A stretch of DNA of 64,000 nucleotides from Minisyncoccota bacterium (GCA_017881075.1 JADGRH010000001.1:59639-123638); one strand, 5' to 3'; numbered from the stretch's first letter, positions 3,001 through 58,116 are shown. Notes: generated by a model not told the origin, from the letters alone. Made by a program: numbers and translations.

Positions 3001-6000
3001 CAGGTTAATGGCAACGGAGCAATCACAGGAACGATAAGTGCACCAACTTTTGTAGCTACCACAAACAATATCGCGTTCCTTTCACTAAAATCACTTTCTT
3101 CTACAATTGGAGTGGGAGTTACAAATGGAGATGTTCTTTCATTTGACTGGGGCGGAATATATCCAAAGGGGTATCAATTCAGAACATCGGCGACACAGGG
3201 GATTAATATAGATAGTTCAGGCAACGTCGGCATCGGGACGACGGCGCCAGGGGCATCTTTGCAAGTTGCTGGCACTGGTATATGGTCTAGCGTTTACGGT
3301 TTTTCTGCCGGTGGGAACGCGCCACTTGCAGTTGGCACAGCAGTACTTCGTACGGGTAATGACTTCCGTATTCAGGACGATGGTAGTTTTAAAATAAATC
3401 AAAGTGGCGCGGCGGCATTCCTGACAATATTAAACACCGGCAACGTCGGCATCGGCACGACGGCACCTAGGGAAAAACTTGATGTTGCGGGAAATATCAC
3501 CACGGATTGGGCAGACCGCTTCATTGGAACTGAATATCAAGATGGCTCTACTTACAGAATGGGTATGAAAGTAGTTACTTCAGATAGAGATTTGCAGATA
3601 ATTAACAAGAGCGCAGGAGAGAATTTTTCGGGAATTTCCTTTCATACGGGGACTGGTCCAACGGAGCGTATGAGAATTGATAAGGGCGGCAACGTCGGCA
3701 TCGGGACGACGAATCCTGGAAACAAGTTAGTTGTGAGCGGAGCCGGTTATACTTATGCAGAGGTAGATGCAAGTTCGAGCAGCGGAACATATTCCGGAGG
3801 TTATCGTGCATATAATGATGTCGGGGCACAGGTATTATTGGATATTTATGCCAGCTCCAGTGTGGGCACATATCTAGGCCAGCCTCTTTCTAATCTTGTA
3901 AGGTTAACGGATTATAGCGGTTCAAGCGGTATTGCCATAGGCACATACACAAATACTCCGCTCACGTTAGGCACCAATAATTCGGCAAGGTTGGTAATCA
4001 ATGGTGCAGGCAACGTCGGCATCGGGACGACGGCACCGAGTGCGAAGTTACAAGTAAATGTAGCCAGTGGGTATGCAAATACTTGGTGGTCAAATGATAG
4101 TGTAACTACTCCATTTAGCGCTATTTACGGAGCTCACGTTGTTGGGTCATTCGGTCAAAATTATTCAACGGGTGGAGGTGCTGATTTTGCTGGATTTAGT
4201 CACGCAAATAACGAAGTCGGGGTGGAATTTGACGGATATGTAGGGGGAACTAGTCCTACAGCACCTGCACTTTTATTGGCAGGTTGGAAGTCTAATGGCA
4301 CTACGGGTGCTTCGGCGATGAGTGGAACAGATATTATTGCGCAGATTGCGGCTGGTGCGTCTCCTGTTGTGACAGTTCAAGCAAACGGCAACGTCGGCAT
4401 CGGGACGACGTCACCTGTCTCAAAATTAGATGTCTCAGTAACTTCACCAGGGTCAACAAACTTTGGTTTAAGTGTGCGGGATTCTACCGTAACCCCAACG
4501 TATGCCAGTAATGCAGATAATCTTTTAACTGTAAGAGGGGCAGGCAGTTCGGTAACTACTTGGAAAGGAAGAATTACTGCAGGTGGAGATAATGTGGAAT
4601 TTCTTATGGGTGAATACAATTCTCTTGCTTGGTTAGGAGCGCATAATGCCGCCCTCAATGCTTGGACTAACATATATATTAACCCTGATGGTGGGTCAAA
4701 TGCATACATTGGAGATTCAGGTGGTGGAGTTAACAATATCCCAGTTCCGATTCTTGCGGTAATTAACAGCACCGGCAACGTCGGTATCGGGACGACGGCG
4801 CCAGATGTAAATCTAGCAATTGGTTCACAGTTACTTGGTGCGCAAGGATTAAGCGGAGCCGTCTTAAACCTTGGTGGTAGTTCCTCTCAAATGCCAGGCA
4901 TAAATATTGGGCAAGACGCTACTCACGCCATAGAGTTTTATTGGATAGGCAATGCGACACCTGGAAGTGCGACTGCTGCGTTGGAAACCTCTGGCTACTT
5001 AAATCCATTTGCTATTAACGGTTCAAAAACAACCATACAAAGTGCGGCTGGAAATGTGATATTGGCGACAGGTGGTGGCAACGTCGGCATCGGGACGACG
5101 GCACCGGGTGGAAAACTAAGCGTGTCCGGCGGTGCAGCTATTGGCTCATCTTACGCTACCACCGCAGTTTCGGATGGAAATCTCATAGTTTCTGGTTCTT
5201 TGGGCATCGGGACGACGGCGCCGGGGTCAAAGATTCAGGCTGTAGGAGGATATATATCAACTTTTGATAACACTGGATACGGACCTGCATTTATGCAAGG
5301 CGCAAGTGGTGTTTCATATTTCGGCAACACCGGGACTTCAAGAATTGCTTTCGGGAACAATACTAATTATGAAAGGATGACGATTTTAGATAACGGCAAC
5401 GTCGGCATCGGGACGACTACTCCGGGTTTTCTTCTCACTGTTGCTGGCACTTCCAACATCACCGGAGCGGCGATATTCGGATCGACTCTAGGAGTTACTG
5501 GTGCAACAACTCTTTCTTCAACTTTGGGCGTCACCGGCCAAACAACTCTGGCGAATGCTTCATCAACGAATCTCACCGTCTCCACTAATTCATATCTTGG
5601 AACTGTGCAGTCAGGAACTTGGAATGGAACGACCATTGCTGTAGCAAACGGAGGCACTGGCCAAACCACATACACTAATGGCCAACTCCTGATTGGTAAC
5701 ACTACCGGCAATACTCTTACAAAAGCAGCTTTGACAGGCACTACAAATCAAGTAGTAGTGACAAATAGCACAGGTTCAATCACTCTTTCCACTCCGCAGG
5801 ATATTGCTACGGCCTCCACTCCAACCTTCGCCTCAACCACTCTTTCAAACTTTACTCTAGGATCCATCCCATTCTTCGGCAGTAGTGGAAAACTGGGTCA
5901 AAACAATGCCAACTTTTTCTGGGATGGTACCAATAACAGATTAGGGATTGGGACATCTACTCCCGATACGCTCCTTACCGTTGCAGGAAACGGAAGATTC

Positions 6001-9000
6001 ACCGGCACCCTCTCCGCTTCAAATCTCTCCGGCACCAACACTGGCGATGTAACTCTAGGAGCAATTGCTGCTACTCCAAACGCAAACGGAGCTTCTCTTT
6101 CCGGGCAAGTCTTAACTTTGCAGCCAGCCTCGACTTCCTTTGGCGGTGTCGTTACAACCGGAACTCAATCGTTTACAGGAGATAAGACCTTTACATCAAA
6201 CTCACTCGCAGCTTTACAAGTTACGGGGAGTAACACAGGAAGAACCTCTATCACTGTTCAAAATACGAACGCATCAGGTAATGCATCATTCTACTTTCAA
6301 AATGATAGAGGTAGCTTCAATTCATACGGAGGCCTTTTGACAGGAGGTTCGTCAGATGTAGGAGGTACTTTATTTGGGCTTGCTCGTGCGGACAGAACCT
6401 TCTTGATAAATGATGGTACTAATGCTCTAGGACTTGCTCTTGGTACTTTGACAGCACAGCCATTGACACTAGGAACGAATAATTTGGCACGGGTCACAAT
6501 TCTAAGTGGTGGTAATGTCGGAATTGGAACGACAGCACCGACCAGCACACTTGAATTATATAGAGGCGATAACAATATCGGGCCAACTCTTACTTTGAAT
6601 AATCCTACTGGAAATGCAGGCACCGCCGGATCAGCAATAGACTTTCTCGGTTATAGCGGAGCGAGCCAGCCGGTTACTAATAGGATTAAAACCATCGACG
6701 ATGGAGCTTATGGCTATCATTTAGCATTTCTCACCAAAGCGGATTCTTCGGGAGGAGCACTTTTTGAAGCAATGAGGATACAAGGAGGCACGGGCAATGT
6801 TGGGATCGCCACCACCACTCCGGGCTTTCCACTTACAGTGACAGGCGCTTCTAATTTCACCGGCGCCCTCAACTTTAACGGCGCCGCTGGATCTTCCGGA
6901 AACATCCTCCAATCAAACGGATCGGGAAGCGCTCCAAGCTGGGTATCAACCACCACACTCGGTACCATTGCGGTAAACCAAGGCGGCACCGGCCAAACTA
7001 CTTATACAAACGGCCAGCTCTTGATCGGAAACACCACCGGAAATACATTAACAAAAGCAACTCTCACGGGCACCGCTAACCAAGTGAATGTTACGAATGG
7101 TGCTGGTTCAATTACCCTTTCTACTCCTCAAAATATTGGTACCACATCCTCTCCCACATTTAACTCTCTCAATATCGCTAATGGATCAACATATAGCGGT
7201 TGGATAGGTAATTTCGGGCTAGGCTCTGACTGGGTTGGATTTACCGCAGATGGAGCGCAAAGTGCTTCAAAGTATGCATTCGAAGCAACGGCATCATATG
7301 GTGAAACTGTTTTTAATGCTAACGGTGGGGGGACATTGCCCTTCATTGATTTTCGATTTTCCAACGGGGGTGTTGAACCTATTACCAGAATATATGGGTC
7401 TGGCGGGCTCTATTTTGGTAGTGTGGCTGGTGCTGCTGACCCCGGTTTACAGAACCTCTCTATCTTTTCTGGAAAACTTGGTGTTGGGGTTCTAACCGCT
7501 TCTGCCAAAATCCACGCCCTTTCCACCACCGAGCAATTAAGACTAGGCTACGATGCTTCCAACTACAATTCCTTTACTGTCGGTTCAACTGGAAGTCTCA
7601 CAGTCGCCGCTGTAGGAACTAATCCTAATATTACCCTCACGCCGGGCGGAACTGGGTATACCATATTGAACGGCAACGTCGGCATCGGGACGACGACGCC
7701 AGGGGCAAAGTTGAGTGTCAAAGGTGGTGGTACTACAACAGGTCTTAACTTCCAAACTACAAACTCTAATAACCTACCTTTGGTCACAATATTAGACTCC
7801 GGCAACGTCGGCATCGGGACGACGACGCCGGGGAATAAACTCCAGATAAATGCTGCTCTTGCCACTGCTTCTGAATCTTTGCTTCGTCTGTCTGGAGGGT
7901 CAACGGGATTTGCCGGGACCAATGATGCAGGCACTGCGTATTCTCTTGTGTTCGATGGTACTGCATATAGTGTTGGTACTGGAGTTGTGCAACGTGATGG
8001 TGCAAAGATTGAGATGGCAAAAGAGGCATCGTGGAACGAAGCCGGTGGTGGCGGCGGTCCGCTTGGAGCATTATTGTTCTACACGAGTGCAGGTTCAATT
8101 GCATCTCCGAAGCTAACGGAAAAAATGAGAATAACAAGTCTCGGCAACGTCGGTATCGGGACGACGGCGCCGGATTCGAAGTTAACTATTTCATCAAATA
8201 CCGCAACCTTACCGTCTGGGGCAGCCACACTTCGTATTGCTGAAGCCGATACCGTGCAGACTAGCGCGGTTATAGACGCTTTTGCTACTAACGGGCTTTT
8301 TAACTTTCGACGGGCCGACACTACGGCGGCAAGCCCCTCGGCGGTCCAGTCTGGTGAAAATTTGGGCGTGTTCGGCGCCGCTGGCTACGGAACCAGTGCT
8401 TATTCCGGCACCCGCGCCCGCGTTGGATTTTTTGCCGATGAGACTTGGACGAATACTGCTAATGGAACATCCATTCGCTTTAGCACTACGCTCAATGGCG
8501 CCGCCACAGCGGGAGGCACGGAACGCATGAGAATAGATAACGCCGGCAATGTCGGAATTGGCACCTCCACCCCGGACCAAGCTCTAGTTGTATCAGGTAC
8601 GGCAAGAGCTACCAACTTACTCGGAGGTGCCACAACTCTTTCAACCGATGCTTCAGGTAACATTATTCGTACTCCATCAGACATTAGTCTCAAGGAAAAC
8701 ATCCAAAATATCGATAGCGCTGATGCTCTAAGCCAGGTTCTAGCCCTTCAAGGAGTAACCTATTTCTGGAAGGACAAGGCGAGATTTGGCACTGCCCAAG
8801 AAATTGGCTTCATCGCCCAGCAAGTCGAACCGATTGTCCCCCAAGTAGTTAAAAGCGGAGGAGCCTACAAATCCCTTAACTATGGTAACTTAACAGCCGT
8901 CCTTGCCAGCGCCATTCAAGAGCAACAAAAACAGATTACAGCCAATGCTTCAACGACGCGGGCCAATGCCTCAAGCACCGCCTCCGCTCTTTCTTCACTG

Positions 9001-9606
9001 GATCTTAGAGTAAGTACCTTAGAGAACCTGGGACCCCAAAGAGGGGGTGGAGGAGTCAGCACTGGAATCTTTGAAGATCTCCTTTCAACACTACAATCCT
9101 TTGGCACCGAAATCGTTGACGGAGTTTCTTATATGAAGAACTTCCTTGCTGAACATCTCACTACCCAGAACTTGACTATAAAAGGCAAAGATATTACGAA
9201 GACAGGATTCACTATTTATGATCGGGCTACCGGCGATCCTATCTGCGTCTATTTTGAGAACGGGATCCAAAAGACTTCCCCAGGCGAGTGTCCCGACAGC
9301 ACAGCTACTTCAACTCCTCCAACAGACACTACCTCCATTGTCTCAGACAACAACCCCCCAATAGATCCCCTCACCGGATCCAGCACTCCTCCGATCTCCG
9401 ATATCGGATCAAATCCTCCTCCAGACCAACCCCCTCCAACACCACCACCCGCCGACCCCACTCCGCCCTCCGATCCCACCTCCTTGATAGCGCCGAGCGC
9501 CCCAACATCACCACCAGCCCCTGATACGTCAGGATCGAATCCTTCTGATTCGACGTCCGCTCCCGCTGATCCGGGCTCGGCTCCTTCCAATGGGGGAGGC
9601 AATTAG
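1..9606 (+). CDS. Giant repetitive surface/fibre-like protein (5'-truncated at window edge; >3194 aa) with C-terminal phage tail-spike-type intramolecular chaperone (peptidase S74-like) domain and Pro/Thr-rich tail
   Basis: Frame 1 is open from nt 1 with no upstream stop, and the ORF-track start at 22 is GTG. The motif GNVGIGTT(T/A)PGxKL recurs about 18 times. Near the C-terminus, 'SDISLKENIQNI...LQGVTYFWKD...IGFIAQQVEPIVPQVV...YGNLTAVLASAIQEQQ' fits the chaperone-of-endosialidase / S74 consensus. The last ~100 aa are P/T/S-rich low complexity. Stop is TAG at 9604-9606. Confidence 0.8.
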   Translation, partial: ATSSIFRVNANGNVGIGTTTPGYKLHVKSASDIQFALDVDSGGRYTSQYFLNNGSTRAVNFWDETSNNLTIGTSHSGADLIFNRGLNAAAMTISGTTGNVGIGTTTPSTKLSVAGQGFFETSTETPVGSGTPGPGIRIGYLTSGDYGYITSSNSGVAAKNLVLQPGGTGNVGINQTVPLDLLHIAGDNIATIRLQNTISGGKTYQIGSAISGVSNAGFQIYNVTNSRSEMVIDTNGNVGIGTTAPGGKLSVSGGAAIGSSYATTAVSDGNLIVSGSLGIGTTTPGSKLDIWGNLNVATGTTPALFVNTATGNVGIGVINPGKPLDVTGDIRASGNLLAGGGNAYLFNGGVRLGNSSGEIDLSANDMIYGPNAGTTNHIFKIGGNEIARINSTGIGIGTTTPGAKLHALSTTEQLRLGYDASNYNSFTVGSTGSLTVAAVGTNPNITLTPGGTGYTILNGNVGIGTTAPGQKLDVAGNINVSTNSAYMYNGLNVITASTTLSNYFFGGSGNLTMTGNANTASGYQALYSNTTGTTNTASGFRALYSNTTGTYNTASGINALYSNTTGTRNTANGLGALYSNTTGGNNAGYGINSGYGLTTGNNNTLIGPSDSVVASYNQVTTGSNNISIGNNVAVASPTASNQLNIGNLIYGTGLNGTGATISGGNVGIGTIAPDKKLEVNLGTSDALRLTYNDSDGSAANYTDFNVSSVGSLTIAPTGTNPNITLTPGGTGYTILNGNVGIGTSTPTLPLVVNGKIMSYGNSTNQITMSPAGNGVDSYAHLQIFNTAGYGQGYLDFYTYPGQGLGTPTVRWRGVDLGSYTGGHVFSASAASQNGASTDVLFVGNTGATGVLTNHFGVGVLTNAPVSALDVNGGVSIGSYAAVNAAPSNGLIVSGNVGIGTTTPGFNLQVAGTGVSAAFGAAANNNGAGVAFLGSSTGKNFFIGNQYNIGGALEITPSTANGGSTFTTPVVTILSTGNVGIGTTAPGTKLEVVGTASSTGLQVNGNGAITGTISAPTFVATTNNIAFLSLKSLSSTIGVGVTNGDVLSFDWGGIYPKGYQFRTSATQGINIDSSGNVGIGTTAPGASLQVAGTGIWSSVYGFSAGGNAPLAVGTAVLRTGNDFRIQDDGSFKINQSGAAAFLTILNTGNVGIGTTAPREKLDVAGNITTDWADRFIGTEYQDGSTYRMGMKVVTSDRDLQIINKSAGENFSGISFHTGTGPTERMRIDKGGNVGIGTTNPGNKLVVSGAGYTYAEVDASSSSGTYSGGYRAYNDVGAQVLLDIYASSSVGTYLGQPLSNLVRLTDYSGSSGIAIGTYTNTPLTLGTNNSARLVINGAGNVGIGTTAPSAKLQVNVASGYANTWWSNDSVTTPFSAIYGAHVVGSFGQNYSTGGGADFAGFSHANNEVGVEFDGYVGGTSPTAPALLLAGWKSNGTTGASAMSGTDIIAQIAAGASPVVTVQANGNVGIGTTSPVSKLDVSVTSPGSTNFGLSVRDSTVTPTYASNADNLLTVRGAGSSVTTWKGRITAGGDNVEFLMGEYNSLAWLGAHNAALNAWTNIYINPDGGSNAYIGDSGGGVNNIPVPILAVINSTGNVGIGTTAPDVNLAIGSQLLGAQGLSGAVLNLGGSSSQMPGINIGQDATHAIEFYWIGNATPGSATAALETSGYLNPFAINGSKTTIQSAAGNVILATGGGNVGIGTTAPGGKLSVSGGAAIGSSYATTAVSDGNLIVSGSLGIGTTAPGSKIQAVGGYISTFDNTGYGPAFMQGASGVSYFGNTGTSRIAFGNNTNYERMTILDNGNVGIGTTTPGFLLTVAGTSNITGAAIFGSTLGVTGATTLSSTLGVTGQTTLANASSTNLTVSTNSYLGTVQSGTWNGTTIAVANGGTGQTTYTNGQLLIGNTTGNTLTKAALTGTTNQVVVTNSTGSITLSTPQDIATASTPTFASTTLSNFTLGSIPFFGSSGKLGQNNANFFWDGTNNRLGIGTSTPDTLLTVAGNGRFTGTLSASNLSGTNTGDVTLGAIAATPNANGASLSGQVLTLQPASTSFGGVVTTGTQSFTGDKTFTSNSLAALQVTGSNTGRTSITVQNTNASGNASFYFQNDRGSFNSYGGLLTGGSSDVGGTLFGLARADRTFLINDGTNALGLALGTLTAQPLTLGTNNLARVTILSGGNVGIGTTAPTSTLELYRGDNNIGPTLTLNNPTGNAGTAGSAIDFLGYSGASQPVTNRIKTIDDGAYGYHLAFLTKADSSGGALFEAMRIQGGTGNVGIATTTPGFPLTVTGASNFTGALNFNGAAGSSGNILQSNGSGSAPSWVSTTTLGTIAVNQGGTGQTTYTNGQLLIGNTTGNTLTKATLTGTANQVNVTNGAGSITLSTPQNIGTTSSPTFNSLNIANGSTYSGWIGNFGLGSDWVGFTADGAQSASKYAFEATASYGETVFNANGGGTLPFIDFRFSNGGVEPITRIYGSGGLYFGSVAGAADPGLQNLSIFSGKLGVGVLTASAKIHALSTTEQLRLGYDASNYNSFTVGSTGSLTVAAVGTNPNITLTPGGTGYTILNGNVGIGTTTPGAKLSVKGGGTTTGLNFQTTNSNNLPLVTILDSGNVGIGTTTPGNKLQINAALATASESLLRLSGGSTGFAGTNDAGTAYSLVFDGTAYSVGTGVVQRDGAKIEMAKEASWNEAGGGGGPLGALLFYTSAGSIASPKLTEKMRITSLGNVGIGTTAPDSKLTISSNTATLPSGAATLRIAEADTVQTSAVIDAFATNGLFNFRRADTTAASPSAVQSGENLGVFGAAGYGTSAYSGTRARVGFFADETWTNTANGTSIRFSTTLNGAATAGGTERMRIDNAGNVGIGTSTPDQALVVSGTARATNLLGGATTLSTDASGNIIRTPSDISLKENIQNIDSADALSQVLALQGVTYFWKDKARFGTAQEIGFIAQQVEPIVPQVVKSGGAYKSLNYGNLTAVLASAIQEQQKQITANASTTRANASSTASALSSLDLRVSTLENLGPQRGGGGVSTGIFEDLLSTLQSFGTEIVDGVSYMKNFLAEHLTTQNLTIKGKDITKTGFTIYDRATGDPICVYFENGIQKTSPGECPDSTATSTPPTDTTSIVSDNNPPIDPLTGSSTPPISDIGSNPPPDQPPPTPPPADPTPPSDPTSLIAPSAPTSPPAPDTSGSNPSDSTSAPADPGSAPSNGGGN
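1561..1800 (+). repeat. In-frame tandem repeat of a ~60-nt unit (about 4 copies), encoding NTASG(Y/F/I)xALYSNTTGTxNTASG, inside the giant gene
   Basis: 'caccgccagtggt...gcgctctatagcaacaccactggaacc' is visibly repeated at 1553-1612, 1613-1672, 1673-1732 and 1733-1790. Confidence 0.8.
9391..9412. repeat. REP-type palindrome TCCGATATCGGA (family 1), embedded in the 3' coding region of the giant gene (encodes PISDIGS)
   Basis: Perfect 12-nt palindrome tccgatatcgga preceded by the partial duplicate tccgatc. The same core recurs at 10438-10449 and 10520-10531. Confidence 0.7.
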
Positions 9607-9736: not shown

Positions 9737-9762
9737 TTAATCTACGCTCCGATCTCCGATGT
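9737..9762. repeat. REP-type near-palindrome (tccgatgtcgga variant of family 1) overlapping the 3' end of the RAYT gene
   Basis: 'gctccgatctccgatgtcggatcgaattc' has the same core as the other family-1 copies with a central 2-nt change. It encodes the RAYT C-terminus ...PTSEIGA. Confidence 0.6.
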
Positions 9763-10428
9763 CGGATCGAATTCATCAAATGTTTTGGCAGGACTTGTGT
9801 CTACAAAATGCTTGTACTCTTCTTTGTTTTTAAATTGGTCAAGAATGAGATCTGTTTTTAGAAGTTCACCCCATCGATTTTCTCCAATATAGTCTTGATA
9901 ACTTGACCAAGGGTAAAAATGCTCCTTGTCCTTCCACCCCGGCAATTCTCGTGCGTTTCTATGAATATAAGCGGAAAGGTGAAGCAACTGAGTATTGTCT
10001 GCAATCAGGACACTCTTGAAAGCTCCCTGAAATAGGTGCCCGATATGAAGATCTTTATATTTTTCATTATTATATTTTGTAGCGGAGATTATAATTCTTT
10101 GTAAATATTTTGATAAAGCTCCATCTTTTTTCCCTGTCGCACTTAGATGAAAGTGATTTGGCATTAAGCCGAATGAGTGAAGCTCCACAGTACGCGAGGC
10201 GACGATCTCCGAAATGATTTTCTTGCTGACCTGGAATTTCCTATGCTTCTCAAAGTATTTTACATATTGAGATAGGTGGCTAAACTTAATCGGAGACTGG
10301 AAAAATAGTATAGTAAAAAGAAAGCGAATATAATCGCGATTATCGTGGAAAATAATTTGCTTATTATTGCCTCTGCTAAGGAGATGAAATACTTCACCCG
10401 CGGCCAAGTTGTCTTTTCTATATGGCAT
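9742..10428 (-). CDS. REP-associated tyrosine transposase (RAYT; IS200/IS605-like HUH transposase)
   Basis: HUH motif 'LMPNHFHL', size about 228 aa, conserved Tyr-containing C-terminal region, flanked on both sides by family-1 REP palindromes. Confidence 0.75.
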   Translation of the reverse strand: MPYRKDNLAAGEVFHLLSRGNNKQIIFHDNRDYIRFLFTILFFQSPIKFSHLSQYVKYFEKHRKFQVSKKIISEIVASRTVELHSFGLMPNHFHLSATGKKDGALSKYLQRIIISATKYNNEKYKDLHIGHLFQGAFKSVLIADNTQLLHLSAYIHRNARELPGWKDKEHFYPWSSYQDYIGENRWGELLKTDLILDQFKNKEEYKHFVDTSPAKTFDEFDPTSEIGA

Positions 10429-22107: not shown

Positions 22108-22189
22108 AGCCGAGTTTCTGCAGATTTTTTTTATCTATAATTTATATTTCCTTTAATGTTTCTTCATAGTCGGTACTATAAAATATCTT

Positions 22190-22208
22190 GCAGAGGTCAG
22201 ACCTCTGC
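22190..22208. repeat. REP palindrome family 2 copy (central A variant) directly abutting the RAYT start codon
   Basis: gcagaggtcagacctctgc, followed 3 nt later by the RAYT ATG at 22212. Confidence 0.8.
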
Positions 22209-22211
22209 AAG

Positions 22212-22907
22212 ATGAGAAAAGAACCATTTAATGTCGGATCATACATTCATGTAATAAAAAGAGGCCATAGAAAGTCTCTCATTGTTCGGGATGAGAATGA
22301 CAGAAATCATTTTGAGCGAATCTTGTATTACCTGAATCATAAGAAATCATTGCCCGAACGTTGGTCTCAGATTTTAAGAGAAAAGAGAATTAAGAATTTT
22401 GATTTTCCTAAGGAGTGGGGAAAAAGAAAGCCTTTGGTAAAAATTGTAGCTTATGCTCTAATGCCGAACCATCTTCATCTATTTCTGAAAGAAATTGTTG
22501 AAGGAGGAGTAACGACTTTCATGAGAAAAATAGGCAATAGCATGACAGCTCATTTTAATCTCAGACATGAAGAATCTGGAACGCTTTTTCCAGGTGCCTA
22601 TCGGTCTAAAACAATTGAAGACGATGCTTATTTTCGTTACTGTGGAGTATATATCATGGTCAAAAATATTTTTGAGCTTTATCCTGGTGGACTCGAGCGA
22701 GCAAAAAAAGAATTTGAGATAGCATTTCAATGGGCTTTAAATTATAGATTCAGCAGTTTGCCGGAATATCTGAATATCAGGACTCAACCGATAATCGATA
22801 AGGAATTGTTAGGGGAACTCTTTTTCGGTCCTAAGGACTTCAAGGATTTTGCTAGAGATTGTATTTTAGGAAGGAAACCTGATTTTAATGAGATAAATCT
22901 AGAGTAA
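22212..22907 (+). CDS. REP-associated tyrosine transposase (RAYT, second distinct copy/family)
   Basis: HUH motif 'LMPNHLHLF', about 231 aa, bracketed by family-2 REP palindromes. The ORF-track start at 22188 lies inside the REP, so the second Met (22212) was chosen. Confidence 0.75.
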   Translation: MRKEPFNVGSYIHVIKRGHRKSLIVRDENDRNHFERILYYLNHKKSLPERWSQILREKRIKNFDFPKEWGKRKPLVKIVAYALMPNHLHLFLKEIVEGGVTTFMRKIGNSMTAHFNLRHEESGTLFPGAYRSKTIEDDAYFRYCGVYIMVKNIFELYPGGLERAKKEFEIAFQWALNYRFSSLPEYLNIRTQPIIDKELLGELFFGPKDFKDFARDCILGRKPDFNEINLE

Positions 22908-47113: not shown

Positions 47114-48280
47114 ATGCTAAATTTTTTTCACAGCTTTCATGGTAATGATCTATTAGATGTTATTCTGGTAGCCCTTTTTATCTATGTTGTTTTTATTTTT
47201 ATCAAACAGACTCGCTCTTACTTCATTTTCAATACCTTTCTGCTTCTTTTTGTCATTACCTATTTGTCGCGAACACTGGACCTTGCCCTAAGTCGTAAAC
47301 TATTTGAACCGTTAGTGGCTTTTTTCGCCATCATTTTTGTAGTGGTCTTTCAGCGTGAGATCCGTCGTTTTTTTAAATGGTTTGTTATCTCCCGTAATCG
47401 ACTGGGACGAAAAACCGAAACCATGATTACAACTCGCATTACCGACGCCATTGTGGAAGCGGTGGCTATAATGGCCAAGAAGAGAACAGGGGCTCTGATT
47501 ATTCTCTCCGGCGAATATCCTTTAGATGGCGTGGTAGAAGGAGGATTTTCTCTTGGTGGAGAAGTTTCCACCCCGCTTCTTTTAAGTATCTTTGACAGTC
47601 ATACTCCGGGTCACGACGGAGCGGTGTTGATTGATAATAAACGGGTCAAGAGTTTTGGTTTACATTTGCCTCTCACTGAAGAGTTCCGCGGCTCGCCAAC
47701 CCTAATGGGAACACGTCATCGGGCAGCTCTCGGGCTTTCAGAAAGAACGGACGCCATGATTATTGTGGTCTCGGAAGAGAGGGGAGCTATCTCTATCGCT
47801 CAAAATGGGGCACTACGAACAGTCCCCGATAGTGATAGTTTGGCGACCATCATCCGTGATTTCATTAAGGAAAATCCGCAAGAGACGCATGATTTCTGGT
47901 ATTACATTGTGGTTAAAAATTTTTTTATCAAGATTCTTTCTATTGTTATTGCTCTGGCTCTTTGGATTCTTCTTGTATTTCAGGGCAATATTTCTAATCG
48001 CGAGATCACGGTGCCGATTGAATTCAGTCATATTCCGGCGAGCGTCATTGTAGAGAAAGTGATTCCACCTGAAGTGAAGATTAATGTTTCAGGCAACAGC
48101 CGTGACGTTGCCGCTCTAAAAGAACAAGATGTAAGGGTTATTATTGATCTCTCTAAAGCGGTGGAGGGTAGCGAGCAATTTGATGTCACCAAAAAGGAAG
48201 TCGTTCTGCCGTCCTATCTTAATCTAGTCAGCATCAGCCCAACCAGAACCTTGGTCGGGCTACATAAAGTCGGACCGTGA
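47114..48280 (+). CDS. cdaA: Diadenylate cyclase CdaA fused to a YbbR-like (CdaR) domain
   Basis: 3 N-terminal TM helices. DAC domain with 'TPGHDGAVLI' and 'GTRHRAALGLSERTDAMIIVVSEERG'. Then an additional TM and ~130 aa 'REITVPIEFSHIPASVIVEKVIPPEVKINVSGNSRDVAAL...' resembling YbbR repeats. Confidence 0.75.
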   Translation: MLNFFHSFHGNDLLDVILVALFIYVVFIFIKQTRSYFIFNTFLLLFVITYLSRTLDLALSRKLFEPLVAFFAIIFVVVFQREIRRFFKWFVISRNRLGRKTETMITTRITDAIVEAVAIMAKKRTGALIILSGEYPLDGVVEGGFSLGGEVSTPLLLSIFDSHTPGHDGAVLIDNKRVKSFGLHLPLTEEFRGSPTLMGTRHRAALGLSERTDAMIIVVSEERGAISIAQNGALRTVPDSDSLATIIRDFIKENPQETHDFWYYIVVKNFFIKILSIVIALALWILLVFQGNISNREITVPIEFSHIPASVIVEKVIPPEVKINVSGNSRDVAALKEQDVRVIIDLSKAVEGSEQFDVTKKEVVLPSYLNLVSISPTRTLVGLHKVGP

Positions 48281-51719: not shown

Positions 51720-51853
51720 GGGGCCGGCGCGGAGCGCCGGCCCCGTTGACTATTTCTTCATATAGTGGTAGCAATTAGAGTGGGTAAAACCAACTATTTT
51801 CAATAGAAATTTGACAAATCAATAAAACAAAAAACAAGAAAGGGCAGTTACAG

Positions 51854-53821
51854 ATGCAACAGAACGAACCAACGCAACAGATTTCACATGCTCGCCTTCA
51901 AAAACGCTACCCCACTATGAGGATCGGTGAAGATGAGGATGAGTTCGCAGTAGATCTTGACACCACGAACACTGAGAAAAAAGGGAGACCAGTTAAGGAC
52001 CTGGATCGGGGTGAAAAACAACTTCATTTCGATCATCGGCTTCTCCGATATAATAAACCTGAATTGGCTGCAATGGCCGAACCGCTTTTGCCGGGAGATG
52101 TGAGAGAGACAAGCAATCTCTCCCTTATTTCGGGAAAGACTGGCCATGAAAGCGACGCCAGTCTTCACCGGGTTGTAAAACCCGAAATGGTCGGAGACGG
52201 AGAGAGAGGACGTGCTCTGGCTGAGAGACGACAAAAGAGACGGTTTCCCCGTGAAAATTTCGGCTTAGGAAAGCTCCAAGACGATCACATCAGAATCTAC
52301 GGCAATGCCATTGACGCCTTCGGCTCTCTAGGTCTGGTTAAAGGAAAATTCGAGGAAGGTTTCATTATCGACCTCGACCAGGGTGAAATCGAAGGAAACG
52401 TCGGCGGAAAGAGTGGCTTTAATCACAACACTCACAATATCAGTAATGTCGAGGGCGATGTCACCGGAACAACAGGAAATCCCAGCGGTTTCATAACAAA
52501 GGTAAATGTCACGGATTGGGGTAACTGGGAACAGATACTTCTTCTCTTTTTCGGGTACGATCCGCTTTTGTGGGATGGAACACCTCTTCCCTCTGATCTG
52601 GCTCCTAAGCCAGGAAGCGCCGTTGATCTTTATCGAATCGCCCGAAAAGCATACGAGACTGGCGGTGGAGGTTACACCCCTGAAATCAAGGCACTCTACG
52701 ATCTCTATCGGGTTGAGCTCGCAAGGGTTTGGAAAATCGCCGAAGAGATGCAACTGCCGTGTTATCTCGATCTGGTAACGACCGCCGACTGGAATGCCGG
52801 CGACTGGGTCTATCGAGATTTTTTCGAAAAGTGCCAAGCCAGGTACGAACAAGCGAAAAAAGACGGGGTAGAAAATCCCGTGGAAACACCATTCGTCCTT
52901 GTAAGACACGAAAGTGGCAATCTTCGCACCACGATCGCCTTGTTCTCGGAACTCGACGGTCGTTCTGATGCGGAAAAACAGTGGGAACTGCCGGATGAAC
53001 CAGTCATTCGGAACATCAGCGCGACAGTGCATTGGAGATCAGAGTGGATGCCTCAAGAAGAGATCGAGTGGCGAACGCGAGCTAATGAAAAAATCTCGCG
53101 TAAGAATATTCGTCGTCAGTTGCGTGGCAAAGAACCTTTGCCTCTGTGGCCTGTTGGATCTCTGATTCCAGAATGCGTGCGGCATGGATGGGACGGGGAG
53201 AGGAAGCTCACCCTAAGGCCCATCATAGAGTTTCCTAAACAGCCCGACAGGGAGGTCTGGAACTTTAAGCCGAGATCGGAAAGTGACGAACATTTCCACG
53301 CTCGAATGTTTCGGAAATATAGGATCTGTCCGCGACACCCACCCTTCTGGATTGAGGATTTCTATGTCTCGGTACCAGTCTATGCAGGTACAGGGAAAGT
53401 GAAATACCTCATTTGTCCGAAGATGTTGAAGATGCCGCCCGGTCCGATGCTACACGTTTCTCATGTGCGTGAATTGCTTCATAGGCCAAGAGCTGAAGCT
53501 CTGGCTTATGTGGATCGTCTTCAACCCAAAAAGCCGCAACTCAGCGCTAAAGCGCTTCAGTACATTAAAGGAAAGATGAAACCTTTGCCAAAGGAAGAGC
53601 GAAGAAGTAAAGCCAAACAGAAAACCAAGACTATCCCTCGGATTTCGGAACAACCTCCGAATTTGCCGAAGGAAGTTAATCTTCCTGCTTCAGCTACAAC
53701 TTCAACTTTAGTAGCACCGGCGCCGAATTCTTCCAAAACTCCGCCGGAACCCGAGACCCCAAAGACGGGGGTAATACGACGGCTTGCGGGTGCCGCCGCC
53801 TCCTTCTACATTAGGCAATAG
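51854..53821 (+). CDS. Large (655 aa) orphan protein, first gene of a compositionally distinct island
   Basis: Long ORF with coding-like periodicity and codon usage distinct from its neighbours (more GCC/CGC/GAG/AAG). No recognisable motif. Basic, Lys-rich C-terminal region. Confidence 0.5.
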   Translation: MQQNEPTQQISHARLQKRYPTMRIGEDEDEFAVDLDTTNTEKKGRPVKDLDRGEKQLHFDHRLLRYNKPELAAMAEPLLPGDVRETSNLSLISGKTGHESDASLHRVVKPEMVGDGERGRALAERRQKRRFPRENFGLGKLQDDHIRIYGNAIDAFGSLGLVKGKFEEGFIIDLDQGEIEGNVGGKSGFNHNTHNISNVEGDVTGTTGNPSGFITKVNVTDWGNWEQILLLFFGYDPLLWDGTPLPSDLAPKPGSAVDLYRIARKAYETGGGGYTPEIKALYDLYRVELARVWKIAEEMQLPCYLDLVTTADWNAGDWVYRDFFEKCQARYEQAKKDGVENPVETPFVLVRHESGNLRTTIALFSELDGRSDAEKQWELPDEPVIRNISATVHWRSEWMPQEEIEWRTRANEKISRKNIRRQLRGKEPLPLWPVGSLIPECVRHGWDGERKLTLRPIIEFPKQPDREVWNFKPRSESDEHFHARMFRKYRICPRHPPFWIEDFYVSVPVYAGTGKVKYLICPKMLKMPPGPMLHVSHVRELLHRPRAEALAYVDRLQPKKPQLSAKALQYIKGKMKPLPKEERRSKAKQKTKTIPRISEQPPNLPKEVNLPASATTSTLVAPAPNSSKTPPEPETPKTGVIRRLAGAAASFYIRQ

Positions 53822-53840
53822 TAGGGAAATAACGATAGTC

Positions 53841-53870
53841 GGCGTCGCGTCTTGCGCGACGCCTTTTTAA
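53841..53870 (+). terminator. Rho-independent terminator
   Basis: ggcgtcgcg-tctt-gcgcgacgcc + ttttt. Confidence 0.75.
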
Positions 53871-53960
53871 TTTTCCATTGACACCAGCTACTTATCATGA
53901 TAGATATCTGACTAGATATTGTAGGAAAAAACAACGAACAAAAACAAAAAGAAAGGTATT

Positions 53961-55424
53961 ATGATTAGTTTTTTGATAACACCGTGCAGGAAAATTTGGC
54001 CGAAAAAGCTGAAACCATGGCTTACGGCCACCATAGCCGTCGATATCGGCACCGACAATCTCGACATTTGTCTATGTGATTCAGACGGAAAGCCCGATGT
54101 CGACAAGATTCTTCAGCTGCCCACCGTTGCGCTCAAAATGGCTGATGGAGAAACTCTTCTCGCCATTGGGGATGAAGCTCGAGCGGTGATAGATCGTGTC
54201 TCTAATGATGCGGAAGAAAAAAGGCGTGTGGAGGTGATCCAGCCGGTCAGAAACGGCAAGATCGTCAATCGTCCAGTGGCGACAGCTCTTCTTAAGATGG
54301 GCCTCCGAGAGTTTTGGAAGCAGTATCCTCAAATCACGGATCAAACGCAAATCCGCCTGATTGTCACAGTGCCAATCAAGTTATCTCATGTCCAGGAACG
54401 AGAGGTAGTCAATGTGGCGCAAAACGCGACCACGAGGAATGACGATAGCAGCACCACTTCCGTCTCGGTTATCGATCAGCCGATGGCAGCAGCCATTGGT
54501 TCGGGAGTTTATAACCCGAAGAAAGTTATTGGGTCACTGATTTGTGACATCGGAGGGGGTACTCACCAGGTGATGGCCGTTTCCGGAGTAGCAGGTAACA
54601 TGGCCTCCAGGCTTTTGGAAGAAGGAGGCAACGCTTATACGGAGGTCATACAGGAGTATTGCCGCACCAAGCACAAGATCGATCCTGACTTCAACGAAGC
54701 CGAAAGGGTAAAGTGCGAGATCGGAGCAGCCGAGGTGGTTCCTGAAAAAGACGAGAACAACAAGATGACAGATGGTAATCGAACTACCAGAATCTATGGC
54801 AAACATCTCGAGACGCACTTGGGTGATTCGGTTGAATTGACCAGCGAGGAGTTGGTACCGGTCTTTGCTTCAATCCTTGGTCGTTTCGTGAGACTGATCA
54901 AGGAAGTGGGAGATGTCGCGCCCAAAGGAGTGGTTGCTGACATGGCAAAGCCAAACTCGGGTCTTTATCTTGCAGGCGGAGGCTCTCTGCTTCGCGGTCT
55001 GCCAGAATACCTGAAGAAAGAAACTGGTTACAATGTCTATGACATCCCGAATCCTCAAAGAGTTGTTGTGATTGGGGCGGCCATGGCACTGGGGAGTCCC
55101 ATCCTCTCCTTCAACTTTGTCCGGGAGCCTATCATTGAAGATCCAAAACGAAAGGGTTTGCCGAAAGCTGTCAAACGACCGTCGTTCAGCAACTTGAGCG
55201 GTCAAAGTCCGACCTTCAGATGCTCAACTCTTCCATCGGAGGATGGAGAATCGGATCCGGTCACCCAATACTCGAAGGGCACAACTTCTGATGGTAAGAC
55301 CTTCGAGGAGAAGGCCTTGCTCCTGGGTGTAGGCGTGAAGTATCTCGACGATCTCACACCCGCTGAGAAGAGACGACTCGCGGCGCAGAAGAAAATGCCG
55401 GTAATGGAGACGCAGACAGCCTAA
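53961..55424 (+). CDS. Divergent MreB-like actin-family ATPase with ~90-aa C-terminal extension
   Basis: 'IAVDIGTDNL' (phosphate 1), 'IDQPMAAAIGSG', 'GSLICDIGGGTHQVMAVS' (phosphate 2), 'GGNAYTEVIQEY...ERVKCEIGAA', 'GLYLAGGGSLLRGLPEYLKKETG' (adenosine motif). These align in the MreB order. Confidence 0.7.
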   Translation: MISFLITPCRKIWPKKLKPWLTATIAVDIGTDNLDICLCDSDGKPDVDKILQLPTVALKMADGETLLAIGDEARAVIDRVSNDAEEKRRVEVIQPVRNGKIVNRPVATALLKMGLREFWKQYPQITDQTQIRLIVTVPIKLSHVQEREVVNVAQNATTRNDDSSTTSVSVIDQPMAAAIGSGVYNPKKVIGSLICDIGGGTHQVMAVSGVAGNMASRLLEEGGNAYTEVIQEYCRTKHKIDPDFNEAERVKCEIGAAEVVPEKDENNKMTDGNRTTRIYGKHLETHLGDSVELTSEELVPVFASILGRFVRLIKEVGDVAPKGVVADMAKPNSGLYLAGGGSLLRGLPEYLKKETGYNVYDIPNPQRVVVIGAAMALGSPILSFNFVREPIIEDPKRKGLPKAVKRPSFSNLSGQSPTFRCSTLPSEDGESDPVTQYSKGTTSDGKTFEEKALLLGVGVKYLDDLTPAEKRRLAAQKKMPVMETQTA

Positions 55425-55442
55425 GGGTAGTAATTAGTCAGC

Positions 55443-55472
55443 GCCGCGGAAACCTAGTTTCCGCGGCTTTTT
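55443..55472 (+). terminator. Rho-independent terminator
   Basis: gccgcggaaacc-tag-tttccgcggc + ttttt. Confidence 0.8.
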
Positions 55473-55596
55473 ATATAAAGTAGCTTCTACGGTAAAATTT
55501 AATTGACGTATAAGATTTAGTGTGATAAGGTCAAAAAGAATTTTCATTTCGTCGAATTCTCGACGAAACAGCTCTTAAACAAAGAAAGGAACATAA

Positions 55597-56319
55597 ATGG
55601 CTAAACCAGCCGTAAAGAAAGTCTCAGTGCAGAGGCGCGCGGTTCAATTGGTCAGTCAATTCATTTGCGCTGGCCGCAAGTTTCATTGGCGCAGGGTCGG
55701 AATTACTCTTCTCATGCTTGTAGTTTTTCCAATCTTGATGTGCACTCTTTGGCATCACGGAGGAAAAATCGCTTCTCTCGGGTGGCGTACAACCACTCAA
55801 GGATTGCAATATTTTGGTAGTCACATGCAGATGGCAACGAAGTTGGCAAAAGTGCAGACAGCGCTCAACCTTACCGACTACGATCTTCGAGTGACACAGC
55901 AAAAGTTTGCCAACAAAACCGAAGAAGCGGCGGAAAATGCAGACGAGGCAAAGGCCGCGCACAAATCGGAAGCGGAGTTGCGTGAGTCCCTAGCTGCGAA
56001 GAAGGAATCTTTGGACGCCGAGAAAAAAGCCACCACTAGACTTGAGGGAGAGGTCACACAGGCAAACCTTAATGGCCAGAAGCGGGTGGAGAAAGCTCAA
56101 GCGGAAGCAGCTTCAAAGATCGCTGATGCCAATGGTGTAGCAGCGGCTGCCGTTAATCGCGCCAAAGTAGCCGAAGCTGCGGTAAACAAACTTCCAGACG
56201 AAAGTTTGAGCAAAGCCAAAGCCGAAGCGGAGCAAAAAAACGCCAGATTGGAAGCGGAGCTTAGACAATCGAGAGCGCGACACCTCGCAGACGTCAAAGA
56301 ATTACTGAAGGGCTATTAG
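55597..56319 (+). CDS. Membrane-anchored coiled-coil protein (island gene)
   Basis: One TM helix ('ITLLMLVVFPILMCTLW'), then a ~170-aa Ala/Glu/Lys-rich coiled coil. Followed by the terminator at 56334-56360. Confidence 0.45.
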   Translation: MAKPAVKKVSVQRRAVQLVSQFICAGRKFHWRRVGITLLMLVVFPILMCTLWHHGGKIASLGWRTTTQGLQYFGSHMQMATKLAKVQTALNLTDYDLRVTQQKFANKTEEAAENADEAKAAHKSEAELRESLAAKKESLDAEKKATTRLEGEVTQANLNGQKRVEKAQAEAASKIADANGVAAAAVNRAKVAEAAVNKLPDESLSKAKAEAEQKNARLEAELRQSRARHLADVKELLKGY

Positions 56320-56382
56320 TGCTCAATCAGGACGCAGTGCGGAACACCGATTCCCGCACTGCTTTTTATTTTAGGGCTGTTT

Positions 56383-56411
56383 CAAATTGCCCTTGACTTT
56401 ATTTCAGGGAT
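56383..56411 (+). promoter_or_regulatory. Candidate sigma70 promoter GCCC-TTGACT-N17-TAATAA (extended -10 TGa)
   Basis: ttgact at 56383-56388. tgataataa at 56403-56411. Confidence 0.5.
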
Positions 56412-56512
56412 GTGATAATAAGAGAAATGAATCGTCAATAGTTAATAAATCTTGAACAAGTATTCAGGGTTTATGTTGACAAACAAACAACGCAGACAAC
56501 CCGGGAGGGTTT

Positions 56513-57097
56513 ATGAATATATCGAAAACAAACAAGCCATTCGCTCTCATTCTCGCGCTCATCGCGGCCGTTTCCTTCGTCGCCACCCCCGTGGCGTTCG
56601 CTGGCGACAGGAACGAAGCGAAGCCGAAGCAATCGGCGATACCTACTAAAGCAGCCGCCAAGAAACTACCAAACGAATTCACTGGCATTCCTGAAGCCAC
56701 GCCAGTGGATCAAATGATCGCAATTGATACGACACCGACCGGAAACGATCCGAACAAAAAGAAACTCCAACAGCTAGCTACAGCTGCCGACCCCACGGCG
56801 TCAGCAACTCCGGACCCTACGGTGGAAGCCAAAGCTGGGATCGTCGCCGAGATTCGCAGGATGGCGAAAGCCAAGATTGACGAGATCACAGCCGAAAAAG
56901 ATGATGTTTCGAGCAAGTACAACGAACTGGTCAAAGGCTACAACAATCTGCTCACGCAACTAAACACTGCGAATGGCGATAAGGCTAAGTTGCAAGCCAA
57001 TTACAACGTCTTGGCGGCAGCGTTGGATGGAGCCGACGACATCAAAACGACGCTCAAGCCGAAAGAAAACCCGGCACCGACGGTCGTTAAGAAATAA
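56513..57097 (+). CDS. Secreted coiled-coil protein (island gene)
   Basis: Signal peptide 'ALILALIAAVSFVATPVAFA', then a predicted helical/coiled-coil C-terminal half. Terminator at 57116-57152. Confidence 0.45.
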   Translation: MNISKTNKPFALILALIAAVSFVATPVAFAGDRNEAKPKQSAIPTKAAAKKLPNEFTGIPEATPVDQMIAIDTTPTGNDPNKKKLQQLATAADPTASATPDPTVEAKAGIVAEIRRMAKAKIDEITAEKDDVSSKYNELVKGYNNLLTQLNTANGDKAKLQANYNVLAAALDGADDIKTTLKPKENPAPTVVKK

Positions 57098-57169
57098 GAC
57101 ACGATCAATTTCGATCAGCGAGCGCAGGGAAGTCCTTTGCGCTCGCTATTTTATTTAGAGACGAAGCCC

Positions 57170-57198
57170 TTGACTTTCTACTACTAGTATGATAATAT
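57170..57198 (+). promoter_or_regulatory. Candidate sigma70 promoter GCCC-TTGACT-N17-TAATAT (same architecture as 56383)
   Basis: ttgact at 57170-57175. tgataatat at 57190-57198. Confidence 0.5.
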
Positions 57199-57256
57199 AC
57201 AGGTAAATCAGGTTCTAGACACTATGTTTAGGGCCGCAACACGGAGAAGTATACAG

Positions 57257-58057
57257 ATGAAAAAACAGATCTTTGCAACACTGATCATGGCCCTAGTGGC
57301 TGGATCGATGATCAATAACGTCTCAGCCCAGACTTCAGCATCAGTGGCCGCTGACGCTGACGTTGTGGCACGCGCGGAAAAATTCAAGGCAAACAGGGTG
57401 CATATCGCAACTCTGGAGCAGGAAAATGCTCGGCTCACAGCAAACGCCGAAGTCTACAAAGAAGCTTTGGGAACAGAGCCCGTTGTGACTTCCTCGCCTG
57501 CGGCAAGCACAACCGCTTCACCAAGCGCGACGACAGACACCAAAGCGGAGAGCGCGACGAAGGACGCCACCGAAGCCGAGATCAAGAGATTGGTCGAGGA
57601 CAAACGGCGCGAAATCGCGGCAAGGAAAAATCTTCCTGGCCCGACAGCGAACAACACCTCTGCGGCACCGGCGAGCACGCCCGCAGACCCAATGGATCGT
57701 GAAGGCTACACCAAGACCTTGGTGGGTAGCTACATCCAGAAGGTGGAAGACCCGCGTTCTAAGCCCGTCGAAATCTTGGCCCGCAAGATTACCCTGGTTG
57801 GAGAAACCGAGGGAAAGATGCGCGAGCTTTGTTTCTGGACTGATGGGCACCACAACATTACCACGGGGTATGTGAGTGGTGGGGTGAAGGCGCATTTGAA
57901 TCGTCCGGATCATCAAACCTGGAAAAGGGGAGAGATCCGCGACGGACAGACAGGCAACATTCTTGTCGTCTATTACGTCGATTCGCCGGAAGGGAAGGTG
58001 GTCACAGCCTCCCGCCGGGAGTACCATCAAAAGCCGTCAAAGAATCAGCGTCGATAG
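57257..58057 (+). CDS. Secreted protein with coiled-coil N-terminal part, Ala/Thr/Ser-rich linker and a C-terminal globular domain (island gene)
   Basis: Signal peptide from the internal Met (MKKQIFATLIMALVAGS). C-terminal region 'CFWTDGHHNITTGYVSGGVKAHLNRPDHQTWKRGEI' has no match I recognise. Terminator at 58080-58107. Confidence 0.45.
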   Translation: MKKQIFATLIMALVAGSMINNVSAQTSASVAADADVVARAEKFKANRVHIATLEQENARLTANAEVYKEALGTEPVVTSSPAASTTASPSATTDTKAESATKDATEAEIKRLVEDKRREIAARKNLPGPTANNTSAAPASTPADPMDREGYTKTLVGSYIQKVEDPRSKPVEILARKITLVGETEGKMRELCFWTDGHHNITTGYVSGGVKAHLNRPDHQTWKRGEIRDGQTGNILVVYYVDSPEGKVVTASRREYHQKPSKNQRR

Positions 58058-58116
58058 GACGCAAAACGACTATAAGCGACAAGTGCAGGGAAAAAGTCCC
58101 ACACTTGCCGCCGTTT

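Follow-up and report, generated by a model that had tools for sequence, protein, structure and literature searches.

The gene described here encodes a diadenylate cyclase and lies on the plus strand at positions 47114..48280 of a 64-kb stretch of DNA from a Minisyncoccota bacterium (GCA_017881075.1 JADGRH010000001.1:59639-123638), which we call the window and whose coordinates are used throughout. It is complete, with an ATG start and an uninterrupted open reading frame (ORF) of 388 amino acids plus a stop codon, and it was identified by its Pfam domains and by TIGR00159 (CdaA) as its best NCBIfam match. A first-pass annotation had claimed that this ORF joins a DAC cyclase domain to a YbbR-like module, and Pfam hmmscan, with the curated gathering scores as cut-offs, bore this out. 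The chain matched CdaA_N (PF19293) at residues 6-83 (47129..47362; 35.4 bits versus a cut-off of 23.8), DAC (PF02457) at residues 115-233 (47456..47812; 122.7 bits, E 8e-36, versus 27), and YbbR (PF07949) at residues 300-381 (29.7 bits, E 8e-7, versus 22.3). The occurrence of all three matches in one intact chain is far beyond chance, and we regard the three-domain fused architecture as close to certain.

The order of the segments, proposed as three transmembrane (TM) helices, DAC, a fourth TM helix, and YbbR, was recovered both by hydropathy and by structure prediction. The Kyte-Doolittle profile rose over three hydrophobic segments near the N terminus and again between DAC and YbbR, where the fourth segment peaked at 2.8. 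The AF2 model, built on 104 homologues, had a mean predicted local distance difference test (pLDDT) score of 88.3, with values below 50 only at residues 255-258; it placed the helices of the CdaA_N membrane domain at residues 10-31, 36-54, and 58-78, then two helices in a linker, and DAC as an alpha/beta domain; beyond the hinge of low confidence (255-258) came another helix (270-291) and an all-beta domain (293-385). A stretch rich in lysine and arginine follows TM3 (mean 6.5 K+R in the 104 homologues). Downstream of the DAC domain, the chain consists of a partly helical cytoplasmic linker that includes the hinge (residues 234-268; 47813..47917), the fourth helix TM4 (residues 269-291; 47918..47986), and a single YbbR domain that is predicted to be extracytoplasmic (residues 296-385; 47999..48268).

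The catalytic motifs were all found within the DAC domain. The strings picked out at first reading, HDGAVLI and RHRAALGLSE, correspond to residues 167-173 and 201-210, so that the DGA motif lies at residues 168-170 (nucleotides 47615-47623) and the RHR motif at residues 201-203 (nucleotides 47714-47722), while an SEE motif is present at residues 220-222. In the alignment of the 104 homologues, the motifs P-G-H-D-G-A, G-T-R-H-R-A, and S-E-E were invariant, apart from one column conserved in 103 of the 104. By region, mean identity was 61% for DAC, 32% for the YbbR ectodomain, and 33% for the linker. The N-terminal two thirds of the protein aligned with solved CdaA chains at E values of 1e-26 to 6e-31; one of these, 9g69_C, contains membrane helices as well as DAC and aligned with residues 13-234. 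Because the catalytic motifs are conserved across the 104 homologues, an active cyclase can reasonably be inferred, and the DAC domain is predicted to make cyclic di-AMP (c-di-AMP) from two ATP.

We next consider what the C-terminal extension is. A search with the last 138 residues against 1.84 billion cluster representatives retrieved 1456 proteins at E<=1e-3. Among the best 150 matches, 56 contained DAC and were matched over residues ~265-395, or nearer the start in contig-cut fragments, and 94 did not; the latter include true stand-alone proteins of about 210-225 amino acids and others of 300-340 amino acids in which YbbR stretches number two or three. Among these 94, the match to both kinds of protein begins at residues ~3-15, at the N-terminal membrane anchor, and residues ~5-30 of the stand-alone TM+YbbR proteins align with TM4. 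Since these matches start at the anchor, the extension corresponds to the N-terminal anchor and first YbbR domain of CdaR. TM4 carries a K...LW signature that is shared with CdaR-type anchors, and K273 and W284 within it are invariant. The extension is the equivalent of these CdaR parts, homologous in fold and sequence. The earlier description of a CdaR-like module thus holds for the TM helix and the YbbR domain, but not for CdaR as a whole: one YbbR stretch is present where CdaR has three or four in tandem, the chain stops three residues later, and there is no disordered tail. The extension is a partial CdaR.

Relatives of the window protein revealed how widespread this layout is. A protein homologue search gave 3859 matches, of which the best 120 clusters, from NCBI, JGI, ENA, and Logan assemblies, were analyzed; clade-specific DAC and YbbR hidden Markov models (HMMs) were applied to these clusters, to genome loci, and to the window. 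DAC and YbbR were on one chain in 114 of the best 120 clusters. In a survey of GTDB species-representative genomes, from which the 80 best loci were kept and in which fused means DAC and YbbR in one stop-to-stop ORF, 64 of the 80 loci were fused; of the others, L050 looks fused by eye and L028 is interrupted by a contig end. The fused layout is the dominant form among relatives of the window protein.

These data also bear on the possibility that the single ORF is an artefact in which cdaA and a short cdaR were merged through a sequencing or assembly error. Classical cdaA and cdaR do adjoin and often overlap (L073, L074), and the two overlapping ORFs of a Binatia locus (L060) indicate that such errors occur, there in the reverse direction. 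However, independent assemblies contain collinear relatives that are 85%, 74%, and 64% identical to the query across 98-100% of its length, full-length collinear homologues span 40-85% identity across many independent assemblies and sources, and hundreds more distant proteins have the same layout. Moreover, the single ORF recurs in the 64 species-representative loci, isolates included, and the linker and TM4 are in frame and conserved. A frameshift or assembly artefact is excluded by the collinear homologues in independent assemblies and isolate genomes, and we give this explanation a negligible chance.

The fused loci from the candidate phyla radiation (CPR) come from metagenome-assembled genomes (MAGs) labelled Saccharibacteria, Nomurabacteria, Nealsonbacteria, and "Patescibacteria group." Beyond the CPR, fused loci belong to Desulfobulbus, Desulfopila, Desulfogranum, Malonomonas, Syntrophobacter, Smithella, Pirellulaceae, Stieleria, Phycisphaeraceae, Verrucomicrobia, Binatia, Nitrospirales, Myxococcota, Fibrobacterota, Bdellovibrio relatives, Leptospiraceae, Latescibacterota, and Rhodothermales. 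By exact look-up, fused proteins of isolates were found in RefSeq and UniProt under just the name "diadenylate cyclase": WP_072909802.1 / A0A1M6MG33 of Malonomonas rubra DSM 5091, WP_028318295.1 of Desulfobulbus elongatus, WP_182866527.1 of Stieleria mannarensis, WP_167546963.1 of S. maiorica, and WP_136812004.1 of Desulfopila. Pfam found DAC and YbbR in four of five scanned isolate proteins, while the Stieleria YbbR was detected by the clade HMM alone. The proteins of these cultured Desulfobacterota and Planctomycetota (Malonomonas, Desulfobulbus, Desulfopila, and Stieleria) have the same CdaA_N - DAC - TM - YbbR order and are 27-35% identical to the window protein over nearly the full length. 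The compact fused form has been deposited many times in RefSeq and UniProt with precomputed Pfam domains, and the fusion is a common, database-known architecture that is not peculiar to this genome. The abstract of Galperin's 2023 survey of DAC architectures reportedly centres on N-terminal domains. We found no experimental or comparative study of the single-YbbR fused form in the searchable literature, outside which that survey and He et al. 2020 lay; the sole mention of a fusion there was that for streptococci in PMC10243994. With fusions in many phyla and in RefSeq isolates, and with streptococcal examples mentioned in print (PMC10243994), the novelty implied by the first-pass annotation was overstated.

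Several relatives depart from the compact form. Eight CPR proteins of 554-568 amino acids (P0062, P0072, P0089, P0100, P0106, P0110, P0111, and P0116) have an extra N-terminal polytopic membrane extension of ~170 residues, with the conserved strings "HF.LD.IPHWDY" and "LQRFH..IH" and no Pfam match at E<=0.01; it may serve the protein as a further input module or as an enzymatic one. The deltaproteobacterial fused cyclases of Desulfobulbaceae and Syntrophales (ORFs of 476-500 amino acids; L071:5956-7383, L078:5953-7389, and L062:393-1823, among other loci) have ~90 more residues after the first YbbR, with the pattern "VP..PQ..G.LP....", a stretch which neither Pfam nor the clade HMM called and which is probably, judged from its sequence, a second, divergent YbbR-like domain. 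At L038:4726-7161 (Myxococcota), a stop-to-stop frame of 812 amino acids has DAC at residues 524-656 and YbbR at 713-799; either the protein is extended at its N terminus by a long stretch, or the GC-rich DNA upstream merely leaves the frame open. The DAC and YbbR of L060:5914-7187, on a 2.2 Mb contig from Candidatus Binatia, are split between two ORFs that overlap in different frames (5914-6762 and 6624-7187), probably owing to a frameshift error or a pseudogene within an otherwise fused lineage.

A further group of relatives has TM4 but no YbbR. Six proteins of 288-314 amino acids (P0035, P0079, P0090, P0094, P0098, and P0114) end 2-8 residues past TM4 and keep the K...LW signature. The P0035 form is present on three independent contigs (L081:5001-5933, L082, and L083), on each of which a convergent RNase J gene lies 12 nucleotides downstream, so that there is neither room nor a remnant for a YbbR domain. 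In a neighbour-joining tree of residues 1-291, computed with no support values, the six proteins grouped inside the larger fused clade, next to the window protein and the fused forms closest to it. This suggests that the CPR sister forms arose by secondary loss of YbbR with retention of the helix. The same form was seen in other CPR loci, on a Zixibacteria chromosome, and in a MAG labelled Gammaproteobacteria (L010, L029, L044, L046, L047, L053, L061, L067, and L068). The CdaA chains of Firmicutes and Alistipes end ~20 residues past DAC without a fourth helix. These sequence patterns suggest that, within the extension, it is TM4 and not YbbR that cannot be dispensed with.

Set against the systems of the Firmicutes, the window protein belongs with the CdaA-type cyclases, and its extension resembles CdaR. 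Like CdaA (DacA/YbbP) of L. monocytogenes, B. subtilis, and S. aureus (PDB 4rv7, 6hvl, 6huw, and 9g69), it has the three-helix CdaA_N domain and intact DAC motifs, but the classical protein stops ~20 amino acids past DAC (L073, L074, L079), whereas the window protein adds 135 residues comprising linker, TM4, and YbbR. Like CdaR (B. subtilis YbbR, Listeria Lmo2119, S. pneumoniae SP_1560; PDB 5hqh, 4qdy, 2kpu, 2kq1, 2l3u, and 3lyw), it has a single TM anchor with K...LW followed by YbbR, and fold and profile matches both indicate CdaR domains; CdaR, however, is a separate subunit with 3-4 YbbR domains and a disordered tail, while the window protein has one YbbR covalently joined to the cyclase. 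The C terminus of Firmicute CdaR is a Ser/Thr-rich disordered region (PMC12041528). CdaA-CdaR fusions have been described in some streptococcal strains (UniProt A5LQF8, E1M7C3, and V8IIN0; PMC10243994). They too combine cyclase and regulator in one polypeptide, and the CdaR TM helix was read as touching the CdaA TM domain, but they were described as "large fusion proteins" (PMC10243994) and occur in occasional strains of a genus whose genes are normally separate. The description suggests a whole CdaA joined to a whole CdaR; the window form is compact, has a single YbbR, and occurs lineage-wide in the CPR and in many diderm phyla.

As had been stated beforehand, cdaA and cdaR are adjacent separate genes in Firmicutes: in the same survey, cdaA is followed at the two Firmicutes loci by a multi-YbbR cdaR and, after that, by glmM, which adjoins cdaR in L073 and lies ~1.7 kb farther on in L074. 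This three-gene operon, whose GlmM product is a cytoplasmic inhibitor, was not seen at the window locus. We searched the window in six frames with the clade DAC and YbbR HMMs and the GlmM motif, and with Pfam on ORFs of at least 130 amino acids. Exactly one DAC ORF and one YbbR ORF were found by the HMMs in the 64 kb, and neither the six-frame HMM search nor Pfam gave a second YbbR ORF in the window that could be a separate cdaR. The glmM active-site motif [ST]ASHN[PA] was absent from all frames of the window, in agreement with Pfam, and the gene may lie elsewhere in the genome. Neither a second YbbR ORF nor a GlmM-like gene was found closer than 6 kb to any of the 64 fused loci, although the clade YbbR HMM scores Firmicutes CdaR weakly (9-28 bits) and a very divergent stand-alone YbbR near relatives could escape it. 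In the annotated window ORFs, Pfam recognized no domain of a c-di-AMP phosphodiesterase, and Rfam at the gathering threshold detected no c-di-AMP riboswitch in the window, tRNA-Thr being its sole hit.

Based on these data, we propose that the protein is a CdaA-type cyclase of Patescibacteria (CPR, Paceibacteria-like) with a CdaR-like TM and YbbR extension that controls it in cis; we assign this reading a probability of about 0.7. The N terminus would be outside, and TM1-3 would put DAC in the cytoplasm, where two ATP would be condensed to c-di-AMP; a cytoplasmic location is expected because DAC needs ATP. TM4 would return the chain outward, and since one TM helix separates YbbR from the cytoplasmic DAC, YbbR would lie at the outer face of the membrane, beside the cell wall. 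In Firmicutes, CdaR and CdaA interact via their transmembrane parts (PMC10243994, PMC8316131), and the analogy makes it probable that TM4 here lies against TM1-3 in cis. The state of the ectodomain could then shift the arrangement or dimerization of DAC and so the rate of c-di-AMP synthesis, and an external signal would be coupled to synthesis of the nucleotide. For this cis-regulatory mechanism, drawn by analogy, we consider the odds to be even. Because the protein has a single YbbR, lacks the disordered tail, and has no glmM beside it, its control is expected to be simpler than that by CdaA-CdaR-GlmM in B. subtilis and Listeria. As a single domain without the tail, the ectodomain would report just on events at the membrane surface and not deep in the wall, and with no GlmM gene alongside, a Firmicutes-type link to amino-sugar metabolism is not evident.

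Four points weigh against this reading. The TIGR00159 score (173.7 bits) is under the equivalog cut-off of 188.8. Sister lineages dispense with YbbR altogether, so YbbR is not essential for cyclase function. Only three residues follow YbbR here (median 5, maximum 17 in the 104 homologues), and there is no disordered tail, the region of CdaR that is reported as the sensing element in B. subtilis (bioRxiv 10.64898/2026.09.06.749708, citing Brogan 2025). Finally, the function of YbbR is obscure even in model organisms, and CdaR has been reported both as an activator and as an inhibitor (PMC10636490). As for the first point, the NCBIfam runners-up were well behind TIGR00159 (CdaS 121 bits, CdaM 95 bits, and also DisA), and we read the score as that of a divergent CPR orthologue and not of another family. 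The same score, being slightly under its cut-off, could be taken to indicate a catalytically dead DAC in a protein that serves as a receptor or scaffold, as could the finding that no other c-di-AMP pathway gene and no c-di-AMP riboswitch is visible in the window. Yet the residues that bind ATP and metal in solved CdaA (DGA, GTRHR, and SEE) are present and invariant, DAC is the most conserved region, and this is apparently the sole DAC gene of the window; we consider a dead enzyme very improbable. Equally improbable is a re-entrant or peripheral fourth helix with a cytoplasmic YbbR that might bind RNA or an internal partner in the manner of L25, for which the resemblance of the YbbR fold to ribosomal protein L25 (PMC10636490) could be adduced: TM4 has 22 residues with a Kyte-Doolittle peak of 2.8 and no charge past K273, it is homologous to the CdaR anchor, and CdaR's YbbR domains have been described as extracellular (PMC10636490, PMC10243994).

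The main rival of cis control holds that the YbbR ectodomain is a structural, localization, or oligomerization module that tethers, positions, or stabilizes the cyclase, for instance where the wall is being made, and exerts no allosteric effect on it. No YbbR domain has a known ligand or signal (PMC10636490, PMC13508791), CdaA and CdaR of S. pneumoniae are at the division site (bioRxiv 10.64898/2026.09.06.749708), and the ectodomain here evolves fast (32% mean identity versus 61% for DAC), lacks the B. subtilis-type sensing tail, and was lost in sister lineages that kept TM4. On the other hand, CdaR alters c-di-AMP output in several Firmicutes (PMC10636490, PMC8316131), and conserved YbbR positions persist across the deep clade and across phyla: D331 and P366 are invariant, and P301, G327, G352, Y368, and P376 nearly so, which argues that the domain is under selection. 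We judge this alternative to be unlikely, although less so than the other rivals. A bolder reading takes the compact fused form as the prevailing, possibly ancestral CdaA-CdaR build outside Firmicutes and perhaps as its minimal functional core. That TM4 was repeatedly kept where YbbR was lost (in the CPR sister lineages, the Zixibacteria locus, and the MAG labelled Gammaproteobacteria) would then mean that TM4 itself acts on the cyclase. We offer it tentatively and think that it may well be wrong; if it is true, the disordered tail of B. subtilis is unnecessary for sensing and YbbR is an optional input.

For this genome, the gene is of little consequence, being the c-di-AMP synthase that one would expect in a CPR bacterium, and the fusion alone opens no long-standing question. 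The natural fusion does provide "Rosetta-stone" evidence that CdaA and CdaR form one physical unit via their membrane helices. The compact chain of 388 residues, with one YbbR, no tail, and no GlmM nearby, is suited to asking what YbbR does to the cyclase, and the natural relatives that keep TM4 and lack YbbR are ready-made controls.

Immediately upstream on the plus strand, a gene for a secreted CAP/SCP-domain protein (PF00188; 46249..47106) ends 7 nucleotides before the cyclase start, and the two genes are probably co-transcribed. The order of CAP then cyclase recurs in the closest relatives (L081:4104-4979, L082:3821-4696, and L083:46-372), as does that of the genes preceding the CAP gene, which encode a DUF4383 membrane protein and a cytidylate-kinase-like protein. 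As a general feature, this synteny was ruled out, being absent from more distant fused loci. Between 45.3 and 48.6 kb, counts of promoters and terminators were near the shuffled expectation, with nothing usable, and a tRNA-like string just 3' of the cyclase gene was not a tRNA by ARAGORN.

The nearest named homologues of the cyclase are labelled "Candidatus Paceibacterota/Pacebacteria," and the window is unremarkable chromosomal DNA from a CPR bacterium. Its ORFs include metabolic genes (GAPDH, RpiB, Rpe, a split transketolase, and aldolase), genes for translation and replication (L25, a release factor, S2, EF-Ts, PheRS-alpha, GyrB, ThrRS, and DnaE), and genes for surface proteins (a sortase, CARDB proteins, and PG-binding proteins). 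A C-terminal Peptidase_S74 domain is typical of large surface or fibre proteins of the CPR, and a 3194-residue ORF at 22-9606 (+) has as its sole Pfam match Peptidase_S74 (endosialidase chaperone) at residues 2886-2944. Two IS200-like Y1 transposase ORFs of 228 and 239 amino acids, at 9742-10428 (-) and 22188-22907 (+), exceed the length of the classical IS200 TnpA. Finally, a block at ~51850-58100 has a GC content of 0.49-0.51 versus ~0.43 and an AT skew of up to 0.26; it contains ORFs without a Pfam match (655, 240, 277, and 483 amino acids) and a long MreB-like protein of 487 amino acids, and it may be a foreign or specialized island.
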